A stretch of 64,000 bases of DNA from Nitrospinota bacterium (GCA_035528715.1 DATKYB010000051.1:50-64049), one strand, 5' to 3'. Numbered from the stretch's first letter, positions 1 through 49,282 are shown. Translations and numbers: made by a program. Notes: generated by a model not told the origin, from the sequence alone.

Positions 1-101
1 TTTATAATGGTGGCGGATTCAACCTGCCCGAATTGTTCTAAAGCCAGCCGTAAGTCCTCTTCGGTGACCTCGTACGACAAATTTCCTACATAGATCTTCA
101 T
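1..101 (-). CDS. RRM (RNP-1/RNP-2) RNA-binding protein, N-terminal part (3' end off window)
   Basis: Minus-strand translation from ATG at 101 gives MKIYVGNLSYEVTEEDLRLALEQFGQVESATII, with a classic RNP-2 motif IYVGNL. RBS GGAGA is 6 nt upstream. Confidence 0.75.
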   Translation of the reverse strand, partial: MKIYVGNLSYEVTEEDLRLALEQFGQVESATII

Positions 102-140
102 TCTAATCTCCTTTTGTAATAAATTATAAATTTTCACATC

Positions 141-196
141 GCCTAACAATTAATAGACGAATTTCTGATTTGTATCGGATTTTTTTCTATATTAAA
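141..196 (-). repeat. Conserved cassette-associated hairpin repeat, copy R1 (class A)
   Basis: Plus strand gcCTAACAATTAATAGACGAAtttct. In gene orientation ATAGAAAAAAA...TTCGTCTATTAATTGTTAGGC ends 41 nt before ATG at 101. The 5' arm 181-196 pairs with the conserved 3' arm. Confidence 0.6.
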
Positions 197-197
197 T

Positions 198-227
198 ATT
201 CTACTAAAAAAGCTAAAATTTTGTCAA
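198..227 (-). promoter_or_regulatory. sigma70-type promoter (TTGACA-N18-TAGAAT) reading toward class-A repeat R1 and the RRM gene
   Basis: -35 TTGACA is the rc of 222-227 and -10 TAGAAT is the rc of 198-203. The predicted TSS falls at the start of the R1 hairpin. Confidence 0.5.
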
Positions 228-278
228 TAGGGTTTTACAGATTTTGCCATTTTCAAATTCGCCTTGGGGTTCTTTGCA

Positions 279-358
279 AGGAAAATTCGCTTTGTGAATC
301 TCCGAAGGAAAATCCTTCGAAAAATTCCTCAGGAAAATCCCTGAAAAATCTAAGGGGG
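279..358. repeat. Phased direct repeats GAAAATYC x5 (period 11-14 bp, one 28 bp gap)
   Basis: ggaaaattcgc (279), ggaaaatcc (307), gaaaaattcc (319), ggaaaatccc (332), gaaaaatct (343). They lie between attC-1 and the promoter at 198-227. Confidence 0.45.
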
Positions 359-371
359 ATTTAAATTTAAA

Positions 372-501
372 GCCTAACGGTCGAGTTCAGGGACAAGAGC
401 CATAGTACGATATTAACAAGCAAAAAGATGTTTAACAATAAAATAATAGCAAACGCTAAAAAGGCATCGCTGGCTCTTGTTCCCTCTGCAACGATTGGTT
501 A
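372..501 (-). other. attC-like recombination site 1 (~130 bp)
   Basis: In gene orientation it starts at the stop codon with TAACCAATCG (TAAC inverse core). A long imperfect inverted repeat GGGAACAAGAGCCA / TGGCTCTTGTCCC has a bulged base. It ends with core GTTAGGC (rc of 372-378). Confidence 0.55.
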
Positions 502-867
502 GACAGCTTCCCGTACCCATTTCTTTGCAGCATCCATATCTGCATAGTCAAACTGCTTCACTTCAGCAGACACAAAATGATTAGCTATCATTGGCGCAAT
601 TGACATAAGTTTTGAATCAGTTACTGCCGCTACTCTTTTGATTTTTTTATGATGATCTTTAATGAATTTCATATGATGTGTGAATGCTCCGAAACTCTTC
701 CATCCAGGAAAGTCTTTGGTATGTATTATGATTCCGTTAACATAGCCTTTTTCATTAATGTATGCATCTATTTCTTTGGTAAGTCGTTCAAAATCAGTTT
801 GTTCAAGTGCGCCTAATGGCTCAATAATAACTATCCCCTCTGCTCTCATAATTTCAAATGAAATCAT
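499..867 (-). CDS. STAS/SEC14-domain (DUF3478, SpoIIAA-like) protein
   Basis: 122 aa with the family pattern FPGW...FIKDHHKKIKRVAAV...EVKQFD...AKKWV. RBS AAAAGGA is 8 nt upstream of ATG 867. attC follows directly after the stop. Confidence 0.65.
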   Translation of the reverse strand: MISFEIMRAEGIVIIEPLGALEQTDFERLTKEIDAYINEKGYVNGIIIHTKDFPGWKSFGAFTHHMKFIKDHHKKIKRVAAVTDSKLMSIAPMIANHFVSAEVKQFDYADMDAAKKWVREAV

Positions 868-886
868 ATTTAATCCTTTTCTTGTG

Positions 887-1018
887 GTCTAACGTCTGGA
901 TCATCGATGCACACCATGAAGCACGCTCAAGGGCATTAAAGCTAATTTGCAGACTATAAATAATCACACTCAAAAAAGTCGCTGCTGGTGTGCATTCGAA
1001 TGCATCCGGTTGTTAGAT
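887..1018 (-). other. attC-like recombination site 2 (~132 bp)
   Basis: Inverse core ATCTAAC (rc of 1012-1018) contains the TAA stop of the upstream gene. Stems GGATGCAT..TGCACACCA / TGGTGTGCATCGATGATCC. Core GTTAGAC (rc of 887-893) lies 19 nt before the next ATG. Confidence 0.6.
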
Positions 1019-1828
1019 TTTATTTATTTTTCTTGCCCTTTCTAAAAATTCATCAACATGAGCGAACATGAATAAATACTCTCCATCAGGGTTTTTGAAT
1101 TCTGCAATCATTGTAAATCGATATATCATTTGATTGAATTCCTTAAAATAAGAAAATGCGCCAGCAAATCGCTCAAGCTCAAGAATATTACCCCATAGAA
1201 CTGGAGCCAATAGAAATGGAGGATATGTTCCAGTTAATCCATTAAGCTTTGAATTGAGTTTCTTTGTTAATCTGTGTTCCAGAAGTTTTTGAAATTTTTC
1301 TGTGCTTTCCATACGATCAAAATCAAAGTTGATATTGAAGACTTCAACAAGTGTTTTATTACCATCTTTTTCAACTTCAAAATCAAATCTTTTTCCATTT
1401 GGTAATTTTTTTTCAACTTGAATAAGCGTTAATCCGTCATCTTTTAGAAGCTTACTGATTACCGCTAACTCTGCAACAAAACTTTGAAATTGTGACTGAT
1501 TATCGTTAAAATTTATAATCATTTTATGGCATAGATTAATTATCTGCTTTCTCGGATCACCTTTAACTTTTTGAAGGATTTCAGTTGCCGTATTATTAAT
1601 AAATTTAAGAAATGCCAGAGAAGCTTGATCTCCCTCATTTGCGTTCCACCAAAAATCAAACATAGTCTTTTCTGAAATAAATTCGCCTTTTTCTTTAATG
1701 TCTGATTCTACTTTTTTGTAACGTTCATAATATTTACTGCTAATATCAGAAAGCAATTTATTTGATGAAGATAAAGCATCATATATTGAAGGCAAGTAAT
1801 GTTGTAGCAGATCTATGGGCTCATTCAT
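1013..1828 (-). CDS. Hypothetical protein (cassette ORF; start re-set to MNEPIDLL downstream of attC-3)
   Basis: The six-frame ORF extends to 1990 but would run through attC-3 and overlap the preceding gene. The in-frame ATG at 1828 lies 15 nt after GTTAGAT. No recognisable domain. Confidence 0.5.
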   Translation of the reverse strand: MNEPIDLLQHYLPSIYDALSSSNKLLSDISSKYYERYKKVESDIKEKGEFISEKTMFDFWWNANEGDQASLAFLKFINNTATEILQKVKGDPRKQIINLCHKMIINFNDNQSQFQSFVAELAVISKLLKDDGLTLIQVEKKLPNGKRFDFEVEKDGNKTLVEVFNINFDFDRMESTEKFQKLLEHRLTKKLNSKLNGLTGTYPPFLLAPVLWGNILELERFAGAFSYFKEFNQMIYRFTMIAEFKNPDGEYLFMFAHVDEFLERARKINKI

Positions 1829-1842
1829 TTTAATTTTTAAAA

Positions 1843-1914
1843 ATCTAACATCGCGGTTCACTGGCCGGAAGGGCCGCAGGCCCTTACGGTCCATGTGAAA
1901 CCGCCTGGTTAGAG
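1843..1914 (-). other. attC-like recombination site 3 (72 bp)
   Basis: In gene orientation: cTCTAAC - TTTCACATGGACCGTAAGGGCC tgc GGCCCTTCCGGCCAGTGAA - GTTAGAT. It has a perfect GTTRRRY core and bulged bases, and is GC-rich in AT-rich surroundings. Confidence 0.65.
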
Positions 1915-1925
1915 GGCACTCTTTT

Positions 1926-2858
1926 CTATGTATATATTTCATCTGTGATTTCTTTACACAGGCCATCAAGTCCAGGATATATTTTACCACTCGTTATTCC
2001 AATTTTTGCCAATTCTTTTCTCAGGTCATTTTTTCTCTTGCCATCTATAACCAATTTGCAAAATATTCGTCGTCCGCAGCAGGGGCAAACAATGAGCTTT
2101 CCATCCTTATTAAACCCATCAGGTTTGTTCCCAAATAACGTAAAACATGATCTCTGTGCTGTTATCCTCGGATTCAGATGTGGTGGTAATAATGCTATGG
2201 GTGAAGCGGGCAGTCCCCAAACAGAGTGATCGTTTGGTGTAGTGATGTTTTCTAACCATCTATCCGTTGATTTTTCTCCTGGATAGAGAACCGTACCGCT
2301 GGACCAATGGTCTTCACCTCCGAGTTCCTCTAACGCATATGTAAGCAAAGTTGTAGGAGCTAGACATGTAACTATTGGGTTTTTTGTATCTTCCATCTCT
2401 GTTCCTAGAGAGAAAAATAGTGCTATAGCTGCATCCTGAGACCAATCAAGAAGTCTAGTTGATCCACCATAATGTTGGATAAGGAAATACCATGACCATG
2501 TATCTGAAATGCTAATCTCAGGCACTAAGGATCGCGCTCGCCTTTGAAATTCAAAAAAGTATTTGCGCTCTTTTTTTTGCTGCTCTGATATTTTATCGTT
2601 ATCGATGTTTCTATATAGCTTTGGCACAAGGCTACCAAAATCCTTCTGTTCGCCACGGAACCAAGTGGACTCAGTCGTACATAATCTGATGTATTTGAAA
2701 TATTCTTCAAGGTTCTTAATAGGACTGAGATTCAAATATCCTTTAGGATGCCATTCTCTGCGCAATGCTATCTTGGATTCTAATGTCTTTGCCTTTTTAT
2801 ATAATTCCCTTACGTCTTCCCGGTCTTTCTCGGGTATATAATCTATCCAATTATGCAT
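1926..2858 (-). CDS. FRG-domain protein
   Basis: 310 aa. STWFRGEQKDFGSLVPKLYR, LIQHYGGSTRLLDWSQD and AQRSCFTLFG match the FRG domain signature. A C-terminal CPCCGRR Cys cluster is present. RBS AAAGGGAAA is upstream of ATG 2858. Confidence 0.65.
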   Translation of the reverse strand: MHNWIDYIPEKDREDVRELYKKAKTLESKIALRREWHPKGYLNLSPIKNLEEYFKYIRLCTTESTWFRGEQKDFGSLVPKLYRNIDNDKISEQQKKERKYFFEFQRRARSLVPEISISDTWSWYFLIQHYGGSTRLLDWSQDAAIALFFSLGTEMEDTKNPIVTCLAPTTLLTYALEELGGEDHWSSGTVLYPGEKSTDRWLENITTPNDHSVWGLPASPIALLPPHLNPRITAQRSCFTLFGNKPDGFNKDGKLIVCPCCGRRIFCKLVIDGKRKNDLRKELAKIGITSGKIYPGLDGLCKEITDEIYT

Positions 2859-2912
2859 AATAATGTTTCCCTTTGCCTTGATTTAATACGGTGTGTATCT
2901 TCTTTATTTGAC

Positions 2913-2947
2913 CTCTAACAATTAATAGACGAAGTTCTTGTTTATGC
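2913..2947 (-). repeat. Class-A conserved repeat, copy R2 (truncated; begins at stop codon of 2950..3675)
   Basis: In gene orientation TGA-GTGCATAAACAAGAACTTCGTCTATTAATTGTTAGAG, 57 nt upstream of ATG 2858. Confidence 0.55.
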
Positions 2948-2949
2948 AC

Positions 2950-3675
2950 TCATAGTACTAACTTTATTAAGTCGGTTTTCTTTTTTTCTTTCCAAACATT
3001 CAAAACCTCCTCCTTGAAATCGTCATATGTTCCATCAATTATGATCTTTTCAACAGATTTAGAAGCGGTCATATCTTCATACGAAAATTGAAACGTAATT
3101 TCATAAGACTTTAGCGAATTTAATTCTTTAGAAAAGTGCATAAGATCGTTGTTCGTTATTACCACATCGATTTCACACCTCATTAAAATCCGGGAGTGTT
3201 TTTCAAGTTTATATGGGAAAATACATGATTTTAAAGAATCTAGTAAGTGTTTAAAGTGGATAGCGGCTGGTTTATTGCTCAGGAGGTCACTATTTGTTTT
3301 AAGCCCAATAATTTCAGGTCGATTTAAAATTATCATTTCATCACGATTGTTTATAAGATCGAAATCAATCGTAAAGTGTGTTTTTGAGTCAACGCGCCCA
3401 TCTCCTAAAAAAGCATAGGGCCTAAATGATGATGTTTTTTTTATAATTTTGAATTCGTTACCAGGTGGCATTTTTATTAAAGCCTGTTTCCAGGCTTTAT
3501 AACCAGCGTAAAATACACATAGTATTGCAAATAGGCCAGTAATTTTGCTTTTTGAAGAAAGATCAATAGGAGAGACACTAGCCACAAGAATAATAATTAA
3601 GGAAACTGCACTAAAATAATTGGTAGCTGACCTTAACAGTACCTTTATATATTCATTGAATTGGCTTTGTTTCAT
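2950..3675 (-). CDS. Hypothetical membrane-anchored protein
   Basis: 241 aa. The N-terminal hydrophobic segments (LIIILVASVS, LFAILCVFYAGY) suggest 1-2 TM helices. No recognisable domain. Confidence 0.5.
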   Translation of the reverse strand: MKQSQFNEYIKVLLRSATNYFSAVSLIIILVASVSPIDLSSKSKITGLFAILCVFYAGYKAWKQALIKMPPGNEFKIIKKTSSFRPYAFLGDGRVDSKTHFTIDFDLINNRDEMIILNRPEIIGLKTNSDLLSNKPAAIHFKHLLDSLKSCIFPYKLEKHSRILMRCEIDVVITNNDLMHFSKELNSLKSYEITFQFSYEDMTASKSVEKIIIDGTYDDFKEEVLNVWKEKKKTDLIKLVL

Positions 3676-3698
3676 AGTAGTTCAATCAAGTTTAAGGC

Positions 3699-3763
3699 CC
3701 ATAACGGGCTGCTCAGGGGCGGTGCGTTTTTTAGCGCCGTCCCTTGCAGCAGCAAGGTTATAA
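3699..3763 (-). other. attC-like recombination site 4 (65 bp)
   Basis: In gene orientation: TTATAACC (stop TAA inside) - CTTGCTGCTGCAAGGGACGGCGC taaaaaa CGCACCGCCCCTGAGCAGC - CCGTTATGG. The cores ATAAC/GTTAT are inverted. It is not a Rho-independent terminator (no U-tract). Confidence 0.6.
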
Positions 3764-4222
3764 GTCCTTTTCAATTTTATTTATTTTATCTTGAAGGTTT
3801 TTTTCTACTTCTTTAACAAGCAATTCGATCTCGGAAATTCGTGAGTCAATTTTATCGAAGTCATAGGCTCGGCATGACATTGGGAACCATTTCTTTGCAG
3901 GTGTACTCCAGTTTGCAACTTTCGGTCTTCGGTATTGATAATCCGTGTGTGCGAATAATTGATTACGAAGGTCAACCAATTCATCATGGAGCGGGCGAAG
4001 TCGTGAGGGAACAACCTTTTTTGTCAATGTGTGTTTTGGAATATGTGTACCCTTATTTACTGAAAAAGGGCGAACATAAGAAACTACAATATCTCTAAGG
4101 AGGCAATATCGGATATCTTTACGCCGATAGCGTTTTAGAATCCGAAGAGCATGCTTTGTTGAATCGAAGTCGATCGAGTAAAGCCTATAGAAATAATATT
4201 CTTCCATGTCTATATTTTTCAT
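3758..4222 (-). CDS. Hypothetical protein (154 aa, basic)
   Basis: ORF starts 15 nt after class-A repeat R3. No recognisable domain. Confidence 0.5.
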   Translation of the reverse strand: MKNIDMEEYYFYRLYSIDFDSTKHALRILKRYRRKDIRYCLLRDIVVSYVRPFSVNKGTHIPKHTLTKKVVPSRLRPLHDELVDLRNQLFAHTDYQYRRPKVANWSTPAKKWFPMSCRAYDFDKIDSRISEIELLVKEVEKNLQDKINKIEKDL

Positions 4223-4231
4223 AATTCAACT

Positions 4232-4284
4232 TCCAACAATTAATAGACGGATTTCTTATTTATTCGTTTTTCTCTGTTGTGGAG
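4232..4284 (-). repeat. Class-A conserved hairpin repeat, copy R3
   Basis: In gene orientation CACAACAGAGAAAAACGAATAAATAAGAAATCCGTCTATTAATTGTTGGAAG. Arms ACAGAGAAAAA / TCCGTCTATT are complementary. Confidence 0.6.
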
Positions 4285-4395
4285 GCTTCAAAACAGATGG
4301 AAAAAATGCAGAATAACGATAAGTAACAACTTTCTAGACCAACATTAAAATCCAGTCCAGAAGTAGAGCAGAATCAACAACAAATTTAAATTCAG

Positions 4396-4423
4396 AATAT
4401 ATTTAAAAAGAGAAAAAAGTCAA
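4396..4423 (-). promoter_or_regulatory. sigma70-type promoter (TTGACT-N16-TATATT) upstream of R3 and gene 3758..4222
   Basis: -35 is the rc of 4418-4423 and -10 is the rc of 4396-4401. It is preceded by AAGAACTTTGAATTGAAAAA, a sequence also found at the 5397-5425 promoter. Confidence 0.45.
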
Positions 4424-4445
4424 GGATATTTTTCAATTCAAAGTT

Positions 4446-4524
4446 CTTGTTATTTCCTCCTTCCCCTTCTGCTTTTTAGGTTTATGCTGAGGGGAGCGAG
4501 GATAAAGTGGAATGAGTTGTTAGA
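4446..4524 (-). other. attC-like recombination site 5 (R' end degenerate)
   Basis: Inverse core ATCTAAC (rc of 4518-4524) lies 12 nt after the stop. Stems CCTCGCTCCCCTCAGC / GCAGAAGGGGAAGGAGG. The 3' end reads AATAACAAGAACTTTG instead of GTTRRRY, which resembles the class-A loop sequence. Confidence 0.45.
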
Positions 4525-4534
4525 TGTTATTATT

Positions 4535-4777
4535 TTATGTTACAATTCGTAAGGCAAAATACGGAATAATATTAAAAACAAATATAGCTATTTTTAAAAA
4601 AGCCATGCCTGCATAATGAATTGCATCGAACGTTTCTACTGGAATCTTGAACCACTTGCTATGCATGCGATAAATCCAATCATGAGCAAATGCAAACAAT
4701 AAAAACCACCACAGCAATAATCCCATATTAATTACAGCGCACCATCCTAATGCTCCACGCAATATATCAACTGTCAT
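4535..4777 (-). CDS. Small membrane protein (80 aa, 2 predicted TM helices)
   Basis: Strong RBS AAAGGAGAAG is 5 nt upstream of ATG 4777. Hydrophobic segments WCAVINMGLLLWWFLLFAF and FLKIAIFVFNIIPYF. Confidence 0.55.
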   Translation of the reverse strand: MTVDILRGALGWCAVINMGLLLWWFLLFAFAHDWIYRMHSKWFKIPVETFDAIHYAGMAFLKIAIFVFNIIPYFALRIVT

Positions 4778-4817
4778 TTGTCTTCTCCTTTTCTGTAAAT
4801 ATTTTATTATTTATTTC

Positions 4818-4889
4818 ATATAACGCTAAAGCTCACTGGCGGGGGTGGAGCGCAGCAAAATCCCCGTCCAGTGCAGCACTTTGTTAGCC
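4818..4889 (-). other. attC-like recombination site 6 (72 bp)
   Basis: In gene orientation: GGCTAAC (contains the TAA stop) - GCTGCACTGGACGGGGA ... TCCACCCCCGCCAGTGAGC - GTTATAT. Bulged G and A bases in the stem. Confidence 0.6.
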
Positions 4890-5276
4890 ACCTAATTTAT
4901 TTTCAATAACTTCATGGACCTCCCAATTTTTGTCAATCCATATTCCAATTATTTCTATGTTTTCATATTGTTGACGAAGAAATTGTATTGCCTTTTGTAT
5001 GTGTATAATTTGATCATTTTGTGGTGCTGGATTTCCGGCACAATCGTGATGGCCAACAATAGCAACTCCTACGGAATTATGATGCTCAATTGAAATTTTC
5101 AGTCTTTCAAGAATCGACTGAATAGAGGTAATGCTTTTCTCTTCTGATAGAATCAGATTTGGGCCAGCTTCAGTAATGGAGTCAACATATTCAACATTGA
5201 ATCGTTTTTGCAGATATCTAATTACAGGTAATTGAACTCGCCCATCCATGCAATTGATAACTGTATAGAATCGCAT
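4884..5276 (-). CDS. Small protein with a possible beta-carbonic-anhydrase-like metal-binding pattern (CxDxR ... HxxC)
   Basis: 130 aa. The motifs NCMDGRV and VGHHDCAGN resemble the Cys-Asp-x-Arg / His-x-x-Cys zinc ligands of beta-class carbonic anhydrases, but the protein is shorter than typical CAs. RBS GAAGGAAAC is upstream of ATG 5276. Confidence 0.45.
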   Translation of the reverse strand: MRFYTVINCMDGRVQLPVIRYLQKRFNVEYVDSITEAGPNLILSEEKSITSIQSILERLKISIEHHNSVGVAIVGHHDCAGNPAPQNDQIIHIQKAIQFLRQQYENIEIIGIWIDKNWEVHEVIENKLGG

Positions 5277-5292
5277 ACCGTTTCCTTCTGGT

Positions 5293-5342
5293 GGCTAACA
5301 ATTAATAGACGAAGTTCTTGTTTATGCTTTTTCTCTATTGTG
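5293..5342 (-). repeat. Class-A conserved hairpin repeat, copy R4 (most complete)
   Basis: In gene orientation CACAATAGAGAAAAAGCATAAACAAGAACTTCGTCTATTAATTGTTAGCC, 23 nt before ATG 5276. Arms ACAATAGAGAAAAAG / CTTCGTCTATT-TGT. Confidence 0.6.
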
Positions 5343-5396
5343 ATAAATCTATATGTATTTTTGAAAATTATGCAATAAAATATCAAAATTCATGTA

Positions 5397-5425
5397 ATTA
5401 TATAAAATCAAAGGGTTTTTTGCAA
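5397..5425 (-). promoter_or_regulatory. sigma70-type promoter (TTGCAA-N17-TATAAT) for first in-window cassette
   Basis: Perfect -10 TATAAT (rc of 5397-5402) and -35 TTGCAA (5420-5425). The transcript leader (~110 nt) contains R4. Confidence 0.55.
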
Positions 5426-5610
5426 TTGAAAGTTCTTTTTGTTCTTGTCCCCTTTTAGATTTTTCAGGGATGCGGCACCAAAGGTCAAATACCGTAAAGA
5501 AAAATTTTAGAGCATTTAAAATCGTTCTGGTGTTCCTGTTTTCAAAGAGGTTACTTCTTAAATTTCAATATTTTCAATAAGTTATCCATCCATTTTATGC
5601 CATCAGTATC

Positions 5611-5638
5611 CATTTTGCGCTTGCATATTGAGGTTTTA
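5611..5638 (+). promoter_or_regulatory. sigma70-type promoter (TTGCAT-N16-TATAAT) for DUF721 gene
   Basis: -35 at 5611-5616 and -10 at 5633-5638, 27 nt upstream of ATG 5666. Confidence 0.45.
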
Positions 5639-5665
5639 AATGTATAATTAATAATATCATATTTT

Positions 5666-5980
5666 ATGAAATTAAGAGTTATGAAGAATTTTGTTAAGAT
5701 AGGCACTGTTTTAAAAAAGTCACTTAAGAAATTTAGGCTGGAGAAGGGAATAAAGCAGTGCAGGATTTTGGATATATGGGACAAAGTTGTAGGCGAACAG
5801 ATAGCTGCTGTTACCCGTCCAGGATATATAAAGGGGAAGACCCTCTATATATTTGTAAGAGATTCGATTTGGCTGCAGGAATTGAAATTCTTAGAAAGGA
5901 TGATTATTGAAAAACTAAATAATAAAGTTGGTGGTAAGATAATAGAAAATATTTATTTCAAGATTGATACAGAAAGGTAA
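5666..5980 (+). CDS. DUF721 (DciA-like) protein
   Basis: 104 aa. The pattern ILDIWDKVVGEQIAAVTRPGYIKGKTLYIFVRDSIWLQEL is typical of DUF721. Confidence 0.6.
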   Translation: MKLRVMKNFVKIGTVLKKSLKKFRLEKGIKQCRILDIWDKVVGEQIAAVTRPGYIKGKTLYIFVRDSIWLQELKFLERMIIEKLNNKVGGKIIENIYFKIDTER

Positions 5981-5988
5981 ATGACAAA

Positions 5989-7761
5989 ATGAAAAAGACT
6001 CTTTTTAAAAAAGAACTTTTGGTTTTCGTTCTTTTTGCTTCGATTATTTTTGGCTGCGGAGATATAAATGAGATATTAAAAGGAAAAGAAAGTGAGGATA
6101 TTAAAGGTCATATAAAATTTGAGATTATACAACCAGAGGACGAAAGGGCATCTAGCAAGAAGGCACTGGCTTATTATCATTATATCTTAGCTGAAATTTA
6201 TAGCCTTAAGAATGACATAGAGAAATCCATAGAGTCTTATAAAGAGGCTATAAAGTATGACTCAAATTCTTCTTATCTCCATTTTAACCTCTCTTCAGAA
6301 TATCTAAAAAAAGGAGATGTTTCAAAAGCCATTTCAGAGATTCAGGAGGCATTGGCAATCAATCCTGAATATAAAGAAGCCAGGATACTATTAGGAAAAA
6401 TCTATTCTGGTCTCAAAAAAAGAGATTTAGCCATTACTCAGTTCAAAAAAGTTATGGACCAAAGTCCCGAAGAAATAGAACCCTATCTTTTTTTAGGGAC
6501 TCTCTATGCTGAAGAGAAAGATTACGACAATGCAATACTCACTTTTCAAAAATTATTAGAAAAAAGGCCGGATTCTGTTGAGGGCGTTTACTATATAGGA
6601 AGGATCTACCTCATAATGAATTTATATAATAGGGCAGAGGAATATTTTAAAAAAGCAATAGAAATATCTCCCGATTTTGAAGACGCTTTAAGGGGATTGG
6701 GAGATATTTATATGATTAGAGGAGATTATGAGGAAGCAGTCAAACATTATGAAAAAGTGCTGGAGATTAATCCTCATAGTAATCTTATTAGAGAAAGGCT
6801 GGGACAAATTTATCTAAAAAAGGAGTCCTTAGATGAAGCCTTAAAGGAATATAAAATTATTTTAGAGTCTGAACCGGAAAACCTATTGACTCACAAAAGA
6901 TTGGCTTTTATCTACTTTAAACAGGGGAATTATTCAGAGGCCCTCAAAGAGTTTCAAATAATTCTTGCTGCTCAACCAAAAGATACGAAAATAAGATATT
7001 ACAAGGCATTGCTATATGAAGAGATGAAGAAATATGACGATGCCTTACTGGAACTGAAAGAGATTATTAAAATAAATCCAAATTCTGTGGATAGTCGGTT
7101 ATTTATGGCTCGTATTTATAAAATCTTAAATAAAGTAGATGATGCTATTGATATCTTGGAGGAACTAGCAAAGGTTGATCCCAAACAATCAAAAGGTTAT
7201 TTTTATTTGGGCATCATCCTTTCTGAGGAAAAAAAATATAATGAATCAGTAAAAAACTTTAAAAAGGCAATAGAGTTAGAACCAAAAAATGATAAATATC
7301 ATTTTAATCTAGGGGCGACTTATGAGAAGATGGGTGAGTTTGAATTATCAATTCATGAGATGAAAAAAACGATTGAGTTGAATCCCAATTATGCGAATGC
7401 TCATAATTACTTAGGATATATGTATGTAGAAAGAGGGATTAATTTAGATGAATCTATTCTTATCATCAAGAAGGCTCTGGAGTTAGAACCAGAAAATGGA
7501 TATTTTGTCGATAGTTTGGGTTGGGCATATTTTAAAAAAGGTTGGTATGAAAAGGCTCTGAATGAATTAGAGAAGGCTGTTAGCTTGGTACCTGATGATC
7601 CAGTAATCAGAGATCATTTAGGTGATATATATTTTAAATTAGAGAGAAAACAAGAGGCATTAAATGAGTGGAGGAAGTCGTTAGAAATAAAACCTGATAA
7701 CAGAGAGGTGGAAAAGAAATTAAAAAATTTGGAGAAAGTATTTGAAAAGGCGAATCATTAA
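5989..7761 (+). CDS. TPR-repeat lipoprotein
   Basis: 590 aa. Lipobox FGCG after the signal peptide. About 14 tandem TPR units (AxxYxxxG/AxxxY patterns). Confidence 0.8.
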   Translation: MKKTLFKKELLVFVLFASIIFGCGDINEILKGKESEDIKGHIKFEIIQPEDERASSKKALAYYHYILAEIYSLKNDIEKSIESYKEAIKYDSNSSYLHFNLSSEYLKKGDVSKAISEIQEALAINPEYKEARILLGKIYSGLKKRDLAITQFKKVMDQSPEEIEPYLFLGTLYAEEKDYDNAILTFQKLLEKRPDSVEGVYYIGRIYLIMNLYNRAEEYFKKAIEISPDFEDALRGLGDIYMIRGDYEEAVKHYEKVLEINPHSNLIRERLGQIYLKKESLDEALKEYKIILESEPENLLTHKRLAFIYFKQGNYSEALKEFQIILAAQPKDTKIRYYKALLYEEMKKYDDALLELKEIIKINPNSVDSRLFMARIYKILNKVDDAIDILEELAKVDPKQSKGYFYLGIILSEEKKYNESVKNFKKAIELEPKNDKYHFNLGATYEKMGEFELSIHEMKKTIELNPNYANAHNYLGYMYVERGINLDESILIIKKALELEPENGYFVDSLGWAYFKKGWYEKALNELEKAVSLVPDDPVIRDHLGDIYFKLERKQEALNEWRKSLEIKPDNREVEKKLKNLEKVFEKANH

Positions 7762-12208: not shown

Positions 12209-14179
12209 ATGGAAGGATACGTAGTATATGCACCTGTTTTTGGAGTCATCGGTTTAATTACAGCAGCGCTTATTTATTTTTATATAAAAAGGCAACCTTC
12301 AGGCACAAAGGTAATGATAGAAATATCTGAGGCAATCCATGAAGGGGCCATGGTATTTCTTAAAAAGGAGTATAAGATAATTTCTATTTTTATCATATTT
12401 GTATTTATCATCTTATCTGCCACCATTAGTTTTTTCACAGCATTGGCATTTCTATCTGGGGCCTTGTGTTCTATGTTAGCAGGGTTTTTCGGTATGAAGG
12501 CAGCAACGAGGGCCAATGTCAGAACGTCACAAGCAGCTAATCAGGAAGGTCAGATGAAGGCATTGCAGATAGCCTTTTCTGGTGGATCTGTCATGGGGCT
12601 ATCCGTAGCTAGTCTCGGACTGATAGGAATAGGTATATTTTTCTATCTCTTTAGTCAGAAAGACCCTTCCATCATAAATGGATTTGCAATGGGTGCCAGT
12701 TCCATAGCTTTGTTTGCAAGAGTAGGAGGAGGGATATATACCAAGACAGCTGATGTGGGTGCTGATCTTGTAGGAAAAGTCGAAGCCGGGATTCCAGAAG
12801 ATGATCCTAGAAATCCTGGGGTTATCGCTGACAATGTAGGAGATTGTGTTGGTGATACCGCTGGTATGGGAGCTGATATCTTTGAGTCATATGTTGGTTC
12901 CATCATTGCTACAATAGCTATAGGCTCCACAATAAGCCCCCTCACCTTTAAATTTATGGCTCTGCCTCTATTAATCGTCATGTTGGGCCTGATTGCCTCA
13001 ATTTTGGGTGTCCTTACCATAAAGATTTTTAGCAAGCTCGATCCAGCATCAATCTTAAGATATTCAACAATCTTTAGTGCTCTTATTTTATTGATAGCAG
13101 CTTATTTATTAATGAAAAGAATGGGGTTTGCCTCTGGTATCTATTGGGCTCTATTTTCTGGAAGCCTTGCGGGTATCTTAATAGGAATTTTAACAGAGTA
13201 TTATACCGGCGGTAGCCCAATAATAAGAATTGCAAAGTCTTCTCAAACAGGGCCAGCAACCAACATAATAACTGGTCTTGCAGTAGCAATGGAAAGCACT
13301 GCCTTACCAATATTGGTAATCTGTGCGGCAATATATATTGCTGCAAAGTTTGCCGGGCTTTACGGTATAGGACTATCTGCTGTTGGTATGCTCTCCACTG
13401 TAGGAATAACTATGTCTGTTGATGCTTATGGTCCTATTGCGGATAATGCGGGGGGCATATCTGAGATGTCTGGTCTTGGTGAAGAGACAAGGAAGATAAC
13501 AGATGGATTAGATGCCTTAGGGAATACTACTGCAGCCATAGGTAAAGGTTTTGCTATTGGTTCAGCTGCTCTGACCGCCCTTGCTTTATTCTCTGCCTAT
13601 ACAAAGGCTGTAAATCTTGAGGTTATAGATATTACTAATGCCAAGGTTGTTATAGGGTTGTTTATCGGGGGTGCAATCCCATTTTTTATTGCATCCCTAA
13701 CAATGACCTCAGTTGGTAAGGCTGCCTTCAAGATGGTCAATGAGATAAGAAGACAGTTCAGAGAAATTCCGGGTATCATGGAAGGAAAGGCAAAACCTGA
13801 CTCAGCCAAGTGTGTAGATATTAGTACAACTGCGGCCCTAAAAGAGATGATCATTCCAGGTATAATAGCTATTATTTCTCCTGTTCTTATTGGATATTTT
13901 GCAGGTCCCCAAGCTTTAGGAGGGATGCTGGCTGGGGCAACATTGACAGGTGTGCTTCTGGCATTGATGATGGCAAATGGGGGGGGAGCTTGGGATAATG
14001 CGAAGAAATATATAGAAAAAGGAAACTTAGGGGGTAAGGGATCTGAAGCCCATAAGGCTTCTGTGGTTGGCGATACTGTTGGTGATCCTTTTAAGGATAC
14101 GTCAGGTCCATCAATGAATATATTAATCAAATTAATGTCTGTCGTTTCACTCGTATTAGCTCCGTTATTTATTCGTTAA
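12209..14179 (+). CDS. hppA: Membrane-bound proton/sodium-translocating pyrophosphatase
   Basis: 656 aa polytopic. [19 protein letters not shown] and DNVGDCVGD / [15 protein letters not shown] motifs. Confidence 0.9.
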
Positions 14180-43994: not shown

Positions 43995-45557
<1,563 letters not shown>

Positions 45558-45720
45558 AGGAGAAAACGATGAGAAAGAAAGATTGAAATCTTTCTTATCT
45601 GATTGTTCTTCTAGATCGATAACTCATAATGAAGTAATGCATCTCTTATTGTTTAAAAAGTAATATATAGCAATTTTTTTTAGGGCATAGGCCTTAATTT
45701 AACAACCTATAGAATTAGTA

Positions 45721-45797
<77 letters not shown>

Positions 45798-45836
45798 TTA
45801 TTTTTGCTATTTAATATCAAGATTATTAGATATCTG

Positions 45837-45911
<75 letters not shown>

Positions 45912-46061
45912 ATTTTAGCCAGTAATCAGTATCCAGGAACCTAAAAAATGGTTACTGGATACTGAGTATTGACTAAAAGGAATTGTTATTGTTCTTTGAA
46001 AATTGAATAGATTTGGGTAATCAAAAGCATCTTAATGTAGCTTACATTTAAAAAAAATTAT

Positions 46062-49118
<3,057 letters not shown>

Positions 49119-49163
49119 AATATAAAATATTCTTTTAGATCCAAATTTTAGAAATTATATTTT

Positions 49164-49278
<115 letters not shown>

Positions 49279-49282
49279 ATAA

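Follow-up and report, generated by a model that had tools for sequence, protein, structure and literature searches.

A 64,000-nucleotide stretch of DNA from a Nitrospinota bacterium (GCA_035528715.1, DATKYB010000051.1:50-64049), referred to here at its full length as the window, opens with an integron-like cassette array. Between positions 1 and 5500, open reading frames (ORFs) on the minus strand are separated by GC-rich hairpins that have the layout of attC sites (R'' ...TAAC, R' GTTR...). A short sequence recurs four times within this array, and an original prediction described it as a second, sequence-conserved family of hairpins, acting either as species-specific attC sites or as RNA hairpins in transcribed leaders. 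The analysis described here points to a different kind of integron site, in that each copy is best explained, with a probability of roughly 0.85, as an attI-type site, more precisely the “simple site” nearest the crossover in the attI of an environmental integron clade with a wide distribution. The four copies and the promoter-like sequences upstream of three of them are given below, where a slash within a sequence or between two positions marks the recombination crossover.

Positions 141..173, minus strand: copy 1, putative attI-type site; crossover G/TT at 147/146, followed by the RRM cassette; nhmmer E=4e-9
Positions 2913..2947, minus strand: copy 2, putative partial attI (ΔattI-type); crossover at 2919/2918
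Positions 4231..4284, minus strand: copy 3, putative attI-type site, variant TCCGTC...GTTGG; crossover at 4237/4236, followed by the 154-aa cassette
Positions 5293..5342, minus strand: copy 4, putative attI-type site; crossover at 5299/5298, at the array edge beside chromosomal dciA
Positions 227-222 (-35) and 203-198 (-10), minus strand: sigma-70-like promoter of copy 1, TTGACA-18-TAGAAT; 11/12 consensus positions, the best match in 6 kb; 51 nt from the crossover G
Positions 4396..4423, minus strand: sigma-70-like promoter of copy 3, TTGACT-16-TATATT; 10/12, a consensus match only; 159 nt from the crossover
Positions 5397..5425, minus strand: sigma-70-like promoter of copy 4, TTGCAA-17-TATAAT; 10/12; 98 nt from the crossover; conserved in the related contig L141

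Four copies of one sequence

Read in gene sense (minus strand), the window copies share the consensus ...AAGAAmTyCGTCTATTAATTGTTrG, and every 3' end conforms to GTTRRRY. A 15-mer from the plus strand, AACAATTAATAGACG, begins exactly at positions 145, 2917, 4235 and 5297, and no fifth copy was found in the 64 kb even at two mismatches; these four occurrences compare with 0.18 expected by chance, and none of 100 shuffled sequences reached that number. All four copies lie inside the array in the single orientation of the genes, and together they span 5.2 kb. The count of four was therefore sound, as were the reported ends of GTTAGGC for copy 1 (147 to 141), GTTAGAG for copy 2 (2919 to 2913), GTTGGAA for copy 3 (4237 to 4231, one base from the earlier coordinate) and GTTAGCC for copy 4 (5299 to 5293). 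An ATG does follow each copy, at a distance that varies from 8 to 54 nt, and the gene downstream of copy 1 does encode an RRM RNA-binding protein. Copies 2 and 4 have an identical 33-mer in common (2915-2947 and 5295-5327). Moreover, the segment CTATTAATTGTTAG agrees with its own reverse complement at 10 of 14 positions and may thus hold two inverted core-like boxes to which an integrase is predicted to bind.

Cassette junctions at the crossover

When a cassette is inserted into an integron, it supplies the bases that follow G/TT, and these are complementary to R'' in the same cassette's attC (PMC12901181). The attC sites of the window array, all on the minus strand, are as follows.

Positions 372..504: classical attC of the 122-aa cassette; hairpin -39 kcal/mol, z-score (z) -3.4
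Positions 887..1018: classical attC of the 271-aa cassette; z -4.2
Positions 1843..1914: classical attC of the 310-aa FRG cassette; z -7.7
Positions ~3696..3763: classical attC of the 154-aa cassette; z -2.9
Positions ~4820..4888: classical attC of the 130-aa cassette; z -3.1
Positions 4450..4530: truncated attC of the 80-aa cassette, fused to an inverted repeat “F”; R'' CATCTAAC...CTCATTCCAC

The start of the cassette that follows each copy was compared with the R'' of that cassette's own attC, and all four copies obey the rule.

Copy 4: cassette start GTTAGCCACC, R'' GGTGGCTAAC; 10/10 complementary
Copy 2: cassette start GTTAGAGGTC, R'' GCCCTCTAAC; 9/10
Copy 1 (RRM cassette): cassette start GTTAGGCGATG, R'' TTTCGCCTAAC; 9/11
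Copy 3: cassette start GTTGGAAGTTG, R'' GGACTTATAAC; 7/11

Over the five positions beyond the core, the four window copies score 5/5, 4/5, 4/5 and 4/5 for complementarity to the corresponding R''. In 50 public loci that carry the same sequence, the six positions after GTTR average 2.9 matches as opposed to 1.97±0.13 on permutation (maximum 2.42 in 1000 permutations), with attC sites located by a crude heuristic that missed two of the five window attCs on its first pass, gave false positives in coding DNA, and was used for aggregate statistics only.

The strongest single piece of evidence for true cassette junctions comes from a metagenome contig, L141 (public loci and contigs are designated by L and a number), whose flanking housekeeping genes match those of the window at 95.9% identity across 14 kb. 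In L141, the homologue of copy 4 is joined directly to the cassette for an 80-aa DUF6868 protein (AATTG/TTAGATGAAATAAA...). In the window, a 475-nt Pro_CA_2 cassette that includes its attC (4824..5298, minus strand) is inserted between the G and the TT of copy 4 and reaches to the next attC crossover, and the same cassette is absent from L141; a cassette has been gained or lost exactly at the copy 4 crossover. Homologues of the copy modules are likewise joined to different cassettes in L084 (copy 4/2), L127 (copy 3, 96% identical over 50 nt) and L140 (copy 1). The cassettes of the window were found in other loci only as the L141 orthologue and a 35%-identical match to FRG. Every window copy thus sits exactly at a cassette boundary, and the integron-site claim of the original prediction stands in part: the identity as a recombination site and the role of GTTRRRY as the 5' boundary of a cassette are upheld, but the site is of attI rather than attC nature.

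The same sequence is the attI of complete integrons

A genome collection scanned for exact matches to the 19-mer TYCGTCTATTAATTGTTRG yielded 44 loci, about 36 of them clearly homologous and the others resembling chance matches in coding DNA; a second scan with the same pattern added at least 119 metagenome loci. Altogether, the core ...GAAnTYCGTCTATTAATTG/TTRG is present in more than 150 public loci from many phyla, and the genome matches include Omnitrophota, Desulfobacterota, Nitrospirota, Thermodesulfovibrionia, Atribacterota, Aminicenantes, Planctomycetia and Nitrospinota, among others. In at least five of these loci (L006, L022, L093, L107 and L137), full-length, divergent integron integrase (IntI) genes of 424-434 aa and without stop codons begin 156-185 nt from the element. 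The integrases of L006 and L022 score 426-433 bits on TIGR02249 (cutoff 265), and both loci are complete integrons with a divergent intI, the element, a first cassette and classical attCs. Between intI and the first cassette of both, a palindrome, (T)ACGAAnTTCGTAT + TATTATAG (“box 1”), precedes a sigma-70-like promoter, which is followed by ...ACGAAC TTCGTCTATTAATTG/TTAGRY. Box 1 occurs at a fixed distance, 78-100 nt from the element, in 52 of 127 sites.

An alignment of 126 dereplicated sites shows that conservation reaches upstream of the motif used in the search (CAAAT.CGAA., with G at -18 in 117 of the 126) and is nil past +6, where +5 and +6 fit the R and Y of GTTRRRY. The resulting consensus is ...CAAAT.CGAAnTTCGTCTATTAATTG/TTRRRY. 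Since the element stands at the junction with the first cassette beside a divergent intI in at least five loci, it is the attI of an environmental integron clade; in other words, the sequence repeated in the window is the attI of complete integrons elsewhere.

The same evidence bears on the idea that the element is the terminal repeat of a transposon, insertion sequence or miniature inverted-repeat transposable element, or a generic repetitive extragenic palindrome. A sequence with one conserved and one variable side does resemble the end of a mobile element, and lineage-specific “F” repeats do occur nearby in both orientations. However, only four copies exist in the 64 kb, all of them in the array and in a single orientation, the variable side follows the R''/R' rule of cassettes, and the linkage in other genomes is to IntI genes and not to transposases. 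We consider a mobile-element or generic-repeat origin extremely unlikely.

Several features of the clade itself deserve mention. Its integrases (L006 1302-2603, L022 5606-6892, also L093, L107 and L137) are ~430 aa in length, and the TIGR02249 match begins only at about residue 107, leaving a conserved N-terminal extension of ~105 aa (LPEFQ.FL...YYA.WV.KFL). Classical IntI proteins are ~320-340 aa and have no such extension. The ACGAAnTTCGT immediately upstream of the crossover core recurs in the box 1 palindrome ACGAAnTTCGTAT (L006 2630-2690, L022 6920-6975). The two seem to be fused in L005, L100 and L152, with the start of intI only 37-55 nt from the core, which suggests either a deletion between the repeats or a short form of attI with no room for an intergenic cassette promoter (Pc). 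In several Desulfobacterota and Omnitrophota loci, a short GC-rich palindrome is located immediately 3' of the attI core (L013, L058, L073; L029 at 3480-3545 and 5490-5561), and these palindromes end in an inverse core, e.g. G/TTAGCGCCGCGCTGCGCGCGGCGCTAAC or G/TTGGCGTG...CACGCCAAC, resembling a minimal attC or empty cassette.

The taxonomic and ecological spread also includes a few odd cases. L015, from a metagenome-assembled genome of Halobacteriota, is a 2.7-kb contig binned as archaeal that carries a promoter-plus-attI module of Desulfobacterota type and could reflect mis-binning or transfer, and the match in L035 (Aenigmatarchaeota) resembles a chance match within coding DNA. L049, L071, L083 and L117, all on Ga0307380_* contigs, represent other attI subfamilies with an identical core in the same metagenome as the window's population; acceptors using the same site for cassettes thus coexist in one community.

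Absence of a conserved hairpin

The original prediction rested on a conserved hairpin, and this did not materialize. Folds of all four copies, with RNA and DNA parameters and on both strands, gave z from -1.2 to +1.3 relative to dinucleotide shuffles, which puts bottom-strand DNA and leader RNA alike at the stability of shuffled sequence. The mean fold z at 99 dereplicated homologous sites is -0.14, as compared with -2.9 to -7.7 for the GC-rich attCs of the window array. The complementary 5' arm that the copies were said to share is missing from copy 2 and different in copy 1. In nine sequences of the window's lineage, the proposed helix has 0 compensatory pairs and a percentage of paired positions equal to that of shuffles. 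A folded hairpin of attC type was rejected on these three grounds, i.e., shuffle-level folding, the absent 5' arm of copy 2 and zero covariation. The lack of a hairpin is what would be expected of a site recombined as duplex DNA.

A species-specific attC family that folds as single-stranded DNA would account for the GTTRRRY ends, for the position of copy 2 at the 3' end of an ORF, where an attC is expected, and for a weak complementarity between ACAATAGAG and CTATTAATTGT in copies 3 and 4. The R' core GTTRRRY is, however, common to attI and attC and does not discriminate between them, and the copies have no R'' inverse core to partner it. Fold stability at the level of shuffled sequence on either strand, the armless copy 2 and the want of compensatory pairs all speak against folding. 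Moreover, the element adjoins intI in complete integrons rather than the 3' ends of cassettes, and a genuine attC lies within 800 nt upstream in just two of 123 sites. The attC alternative is therefore highly improbable.

The second alternative in the original prediction was a cis-regulatory RNA in 5' leaders, such as a translational operator or thermosensor. Three copies are indeed located between promoter-like sites and start codons, and an RRM gene follows copy 1. Against this are the absence of any stable or conserved structure and of any Rfam family in window positions 1-6000, whether at gathering thresholds or at E<=1, as well as the unrelated nature of the downstream cassettes and the 8-54 nt range of the ATG distance. 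Conservation is also at the level of DNA and ends exactly at the recombination core, and the same sequence flanks intI genes in other phyla. A regulatory leader RNA is accordingly very unlikely.

Predicted promoters

That three copies lie downstream of promoters was correctly predicted, in so far as sigma-70-like consensus matches are located upstream of copies 1, 3 and 4, and these are the three best minus-strand promoter matches in 6 kb. Across the public loci, sense promoters scoring at least 10/12 are found upstream of the element in 21% and downstream of it in 3%, often at a distance of about 50 nt. Since it lies downstream of promoters, the element is probably transcribed as part of the leader. 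In copy 4, an insertion of ~33 nt in the leader (window 5343-5380) relative to L141 (14100-14145) shifts TTGCAA-17-TATAAT further from the crossover.

Anatomy of the array

Read in gene sense, i.e., along the minus strand, and extended beyond the window by a 52-kb contig (L045), the array has the following order.

1, chromosomal dciA, divergent
2, promoter 5425-5397 and putative attI copy 4
3, Pro_CA_2 cassette, 130-aa protein
4, DUF6868 cassette, 80-aa protein; attC truncated and fused to the inverted, lineage-specific repeat F
5, promoter 4423-4396 and putative attI copy 3
6, 154-aa cassette
7, 241-aa ORF, then the putative 33-nt partial attI (copy 2) in place of an attC
8, 310-aa FRG cassette, then 271-aa cassette, then SpoIIAA-like (122-aa) cassette
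9, 231-nt gene-less module, from the attC crossover of the 122-aa cassette to attI copy 1
10, RRM cassette
11, cytochrome c cassette
12, F flank, then chromosomal genes (OsmC, NtrC-type regulator)

Copy 2 begins directly after the TGA of the 241-aa ORF, and no attC for this ORF is present between 2950 and 2913. Copy 2 would then be a partial attI, 33 nt long, substituting for the attC of the 241-aa cassette and making the latter a putative ΔattI-type cassette.

The gene-less module upstream of copy 1 (174..377, minus strand) starts immediately after the crossover 378/377; small hairpin repeats are present in it, along with a sigma-70-like promoter. In L045, the last attC of the array is likewise followed by the module's first 27 nt, TTAGGCTTTAAATTTAAATCCCCCTT, and in L084 and L140 the last attC is followed by a near-identical start.

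The repeat F, seen in the window's lineage alone, starts with the same TTAGGCTTTAAATTTAAATCCCCCTT and includes small AAATCCC...GGGATTT hairpins. Its positions are 335-379, 4450-4527 (inverted) and 5440-5475 (inverted) in the window, and it also lies in L045 at 12590-12830, in L084 at 1704-2080 and in L127 at 781-964 (inverted). Much like a 3' conserved segment, F follows the last attC at the end of L045 and in L084 and L140, and it is inverted upstream of copy 3, copy 4 and the L127 attI. The attC of the 80-aa cassette, intact in L141 (14480-14532), breaks off in the window (4507-4530) after CTCATTCCAC into inverted F, followed by the promoter and copy 3.

Probable loss of the integrase and multiplication of sites

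Most public sites are single and located at the start of their arrays. More than one copy per stretch occurs in L003 and L023 (three each, in L023 as promoter-plus-attI units), L029 (two) and L096. No locus found is more extreme than the window, where four copies with the exact core are packed into 5.2 kb and intI is absent. L096 contains two platforms in the same orientation 5 kb apart, the first with an intI pseudogene and the second with a whole attI region, including box 1, and no intI; it is plausible that L096 represents an intermediate stage of platform multiplication.

In several other loci, intI is truncated by the contig end, frameshifted or deleted. A perfect attI core accompanies a decayed intI in L014, L018, L032, L058, L082, L096, L126, L144, L159, L164 and L165, where the forms of decay include N-terminal stubs of 25-70 codons, internal deletions (L126, L159) and an insertion (L014). 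In such loci, the attI and promoter seem to outlive the integrase.

Proposed function and points against it

Under the attI reading, IntI would bind the imperfect palindrome CTATT-AATT-GTTAG as double-stranded DNA and recombine the element with folded attC sites, such that cassettes would enter immediately downstream. The sigma-70-like promoters of copies 1, 3 and 4 could act as Pc, transcribing through the site into the cassettes, and the array would thereby be split into about three transcription units, each with a promoter-proximal insertion point. The multi-copy state most likely resulted from the fusion or duplication of several platforms followed by the loss of intI, and copy 2 may have arisen in the same way as the ΔattI-type cassettes of clinical integrons.

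A number of observations weigh against this interpretation. Searches by tblastn and by a five-sequence IntI hidden Markov model against six-frame ORFs found no integrase gene or remnant in the 64-kb window, L045, L141, L084, L127 or L140 (best E = 0.41). The integrase must therefore have acted in trans or been lost since, and present-day use of the sites would need an integrase in trans. The intI-proximal box 1 was not found at the window copies, and its palindrome matches nothing in the window other than the element itself. The promoter matches of copies 3 and 4 are 159 and 98 nt from the crossover, as opposed to the typical distance of about 50 nt, and are consensus matches only. Six population contigs carrying the 122-aa cassette are 99.9-100% identical, with no ongoing cassette turnover visible. 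In addition, the copy 3 module has its left boundary inside an attC (in L'') instead of at a canonical crossover, so that IntI chemistry does not account for all of the junctions. Finally, the public matches were found with an exact pattern, and the apparent invariance of the core is in part an effect of the search; variants exist in L003, L023, L029 and L096.

Some of these points could also mean that the copies are attI-derived fossils, former insertion sites now inert in recombination, of which only the promoter and leader function for downstream genes persists in a decayed, integrase-less array. The missing intI in the window and lineage contigs, the identical population contigs, the many homologous loci with only intI pseudogene remnants and the lack of box 1 at the window copies would all fit such a scenario. 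On the other hand, all four copies and the relatives preserve a core of 33-37 nt amid diverging flanks, the 33 nt common to copies 2 and 4 are 100% identical, lineages just ~4% apart differ by a cassette, and integrases can act in trans from elsewhere in the genome. Fossil status is possible, though we lean against it.

It is also conceivable that the promoter-plus-attI modules are themselves mobile “platform cassettes,” a speculative notion that we regard as doubtful. The 231-nt module of copy 1 is bounded by an attC crossover (G/TTAGGC...) on the left and by its own G/TT on the right. If circularized, it would recreate the empty-platform junction AATTG/TTAGGCTTTAAATTT, which is the sequence found after the last attC of lineage arrays. 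An integrase provided in trans could thereby seed new promoter-proximal insertion points in arrays; if platform cassettes were to exist, the outcome would be modular integrons with several platforms, able to persist in the absence of a resident integrase.

Comparison with known systems and significance

In attI1, the simple site consists of L and R boxes, with DR1 and DR2 alongside, and crossover takes place in GTTRRRY. The element resembles such sites in its location between a divergent intI and the first cassette of complete integrons, in its GTTRRRY end with the junction at G/TT, in its two putative inverted core-like half sites (CTATT and GTTAG around AATT), in the absence of a hairpin and in the predicted Pc-like promoter upstream. 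Unlike attI1, attI2 and attI3, to which its sequence is unrelated apart from the core common to all integron sites, it has accessory repeats of ACGAA type (box 1) and not GTTA-type direct repeats. The window further departs from the usual situation in having four copies, no intI and no intI-proximal half of attI. Between integron classes attI sites diverge, within a class they are conserved, and numerous environmental attI families have been described (PMC3146285).

Partial attI sequences that replace attC are known in integrons of classes 1 and 2 and are functional in assays (PMC12901181). The cassettes in question, ΔattI-type and “unusual,” come from mobile integrons of both classes (Partridge 2009; Gonzales Machuca et al. 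2026, PMC12901181). Like them, copy 2 consists of a partial attI, core included, and occupies the attC position right after an ORF within an array. Unlike them, it is chromosomal, environmental and integrase-less, with a fragment of 33 nt as opposed to the typical 14-18 nt, although longer fragments, among them ΔattI2-238 and a full attI1 duplicate, have been described as well; the three further copies of the window also carry whole predicted promoter modules.

A second parallel comes from Vibrio superintegrons and their gene-less cassettes that bear promoters (Blanco et al. 2024, PMC11014356). The 231-nt copy 1 module is similarly located between two crossovers, with a sense promoter facing the downstream cassettes. 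It differs in that its 3' site is of attI type and not an attC, and its promoter is predicted.

CALIN is the name for an attC cluster that lacks an integron integrase, and its definition involves attCs alone. The window resembles a CALIN as an attC-bounded cassette array with no intI nearby, but differs from one in retaining attI-type sites and promoters, for which reason it is better viewed as a decapitated composite integron than as a bare attC cluster. With its four attI sites and three predicted promoters in the absence of an integrase, the arrangement is unusual as a variant but does not constitute a new category. The exact sequence of the element was not found in the literature that was searched, and to that extent it is undescribed, as originally proposed; attI sites, partial attI sites and promoter-bearing gene-less cassettes, however, are all known.

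To our knowledge, attI is annotated by current tools for the clinical classes only, and the consensus given here can serve as a signature by which to recognize attI in a large group of environmental integrons that spans phyla. As the window also illustrates, several insertion sites that look intact can persist, together with predicted promoters, in an “integrase-less attC cluster.” If these sites work in trans, such arrays would be live cassette acceptors with several expressed entry points rather than dead storage. Copy 2, in turn, would extend ΔattI-type cassettes from clinical mobile integrons to the chromosomal arrays of uncultured bacteria.

Other features of the window

The protein of the RRM cassette, whose gene is cut at window positions 1-110 and continues in L045 (11020-11195), has a long C-terminal tail of imperfect GGRGGYGG repeats, which align with one another at 81% at the DNA level. 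Far from the array, a complete rRNA operon at 43995-49279 comprises 16S, two tRNA genes, 23S and 5S; its 23S gene is 3057 nt long, compared with 2925 nt for the model, with extra segments near 46344-46360, 46390-46416 and 46691-46716.

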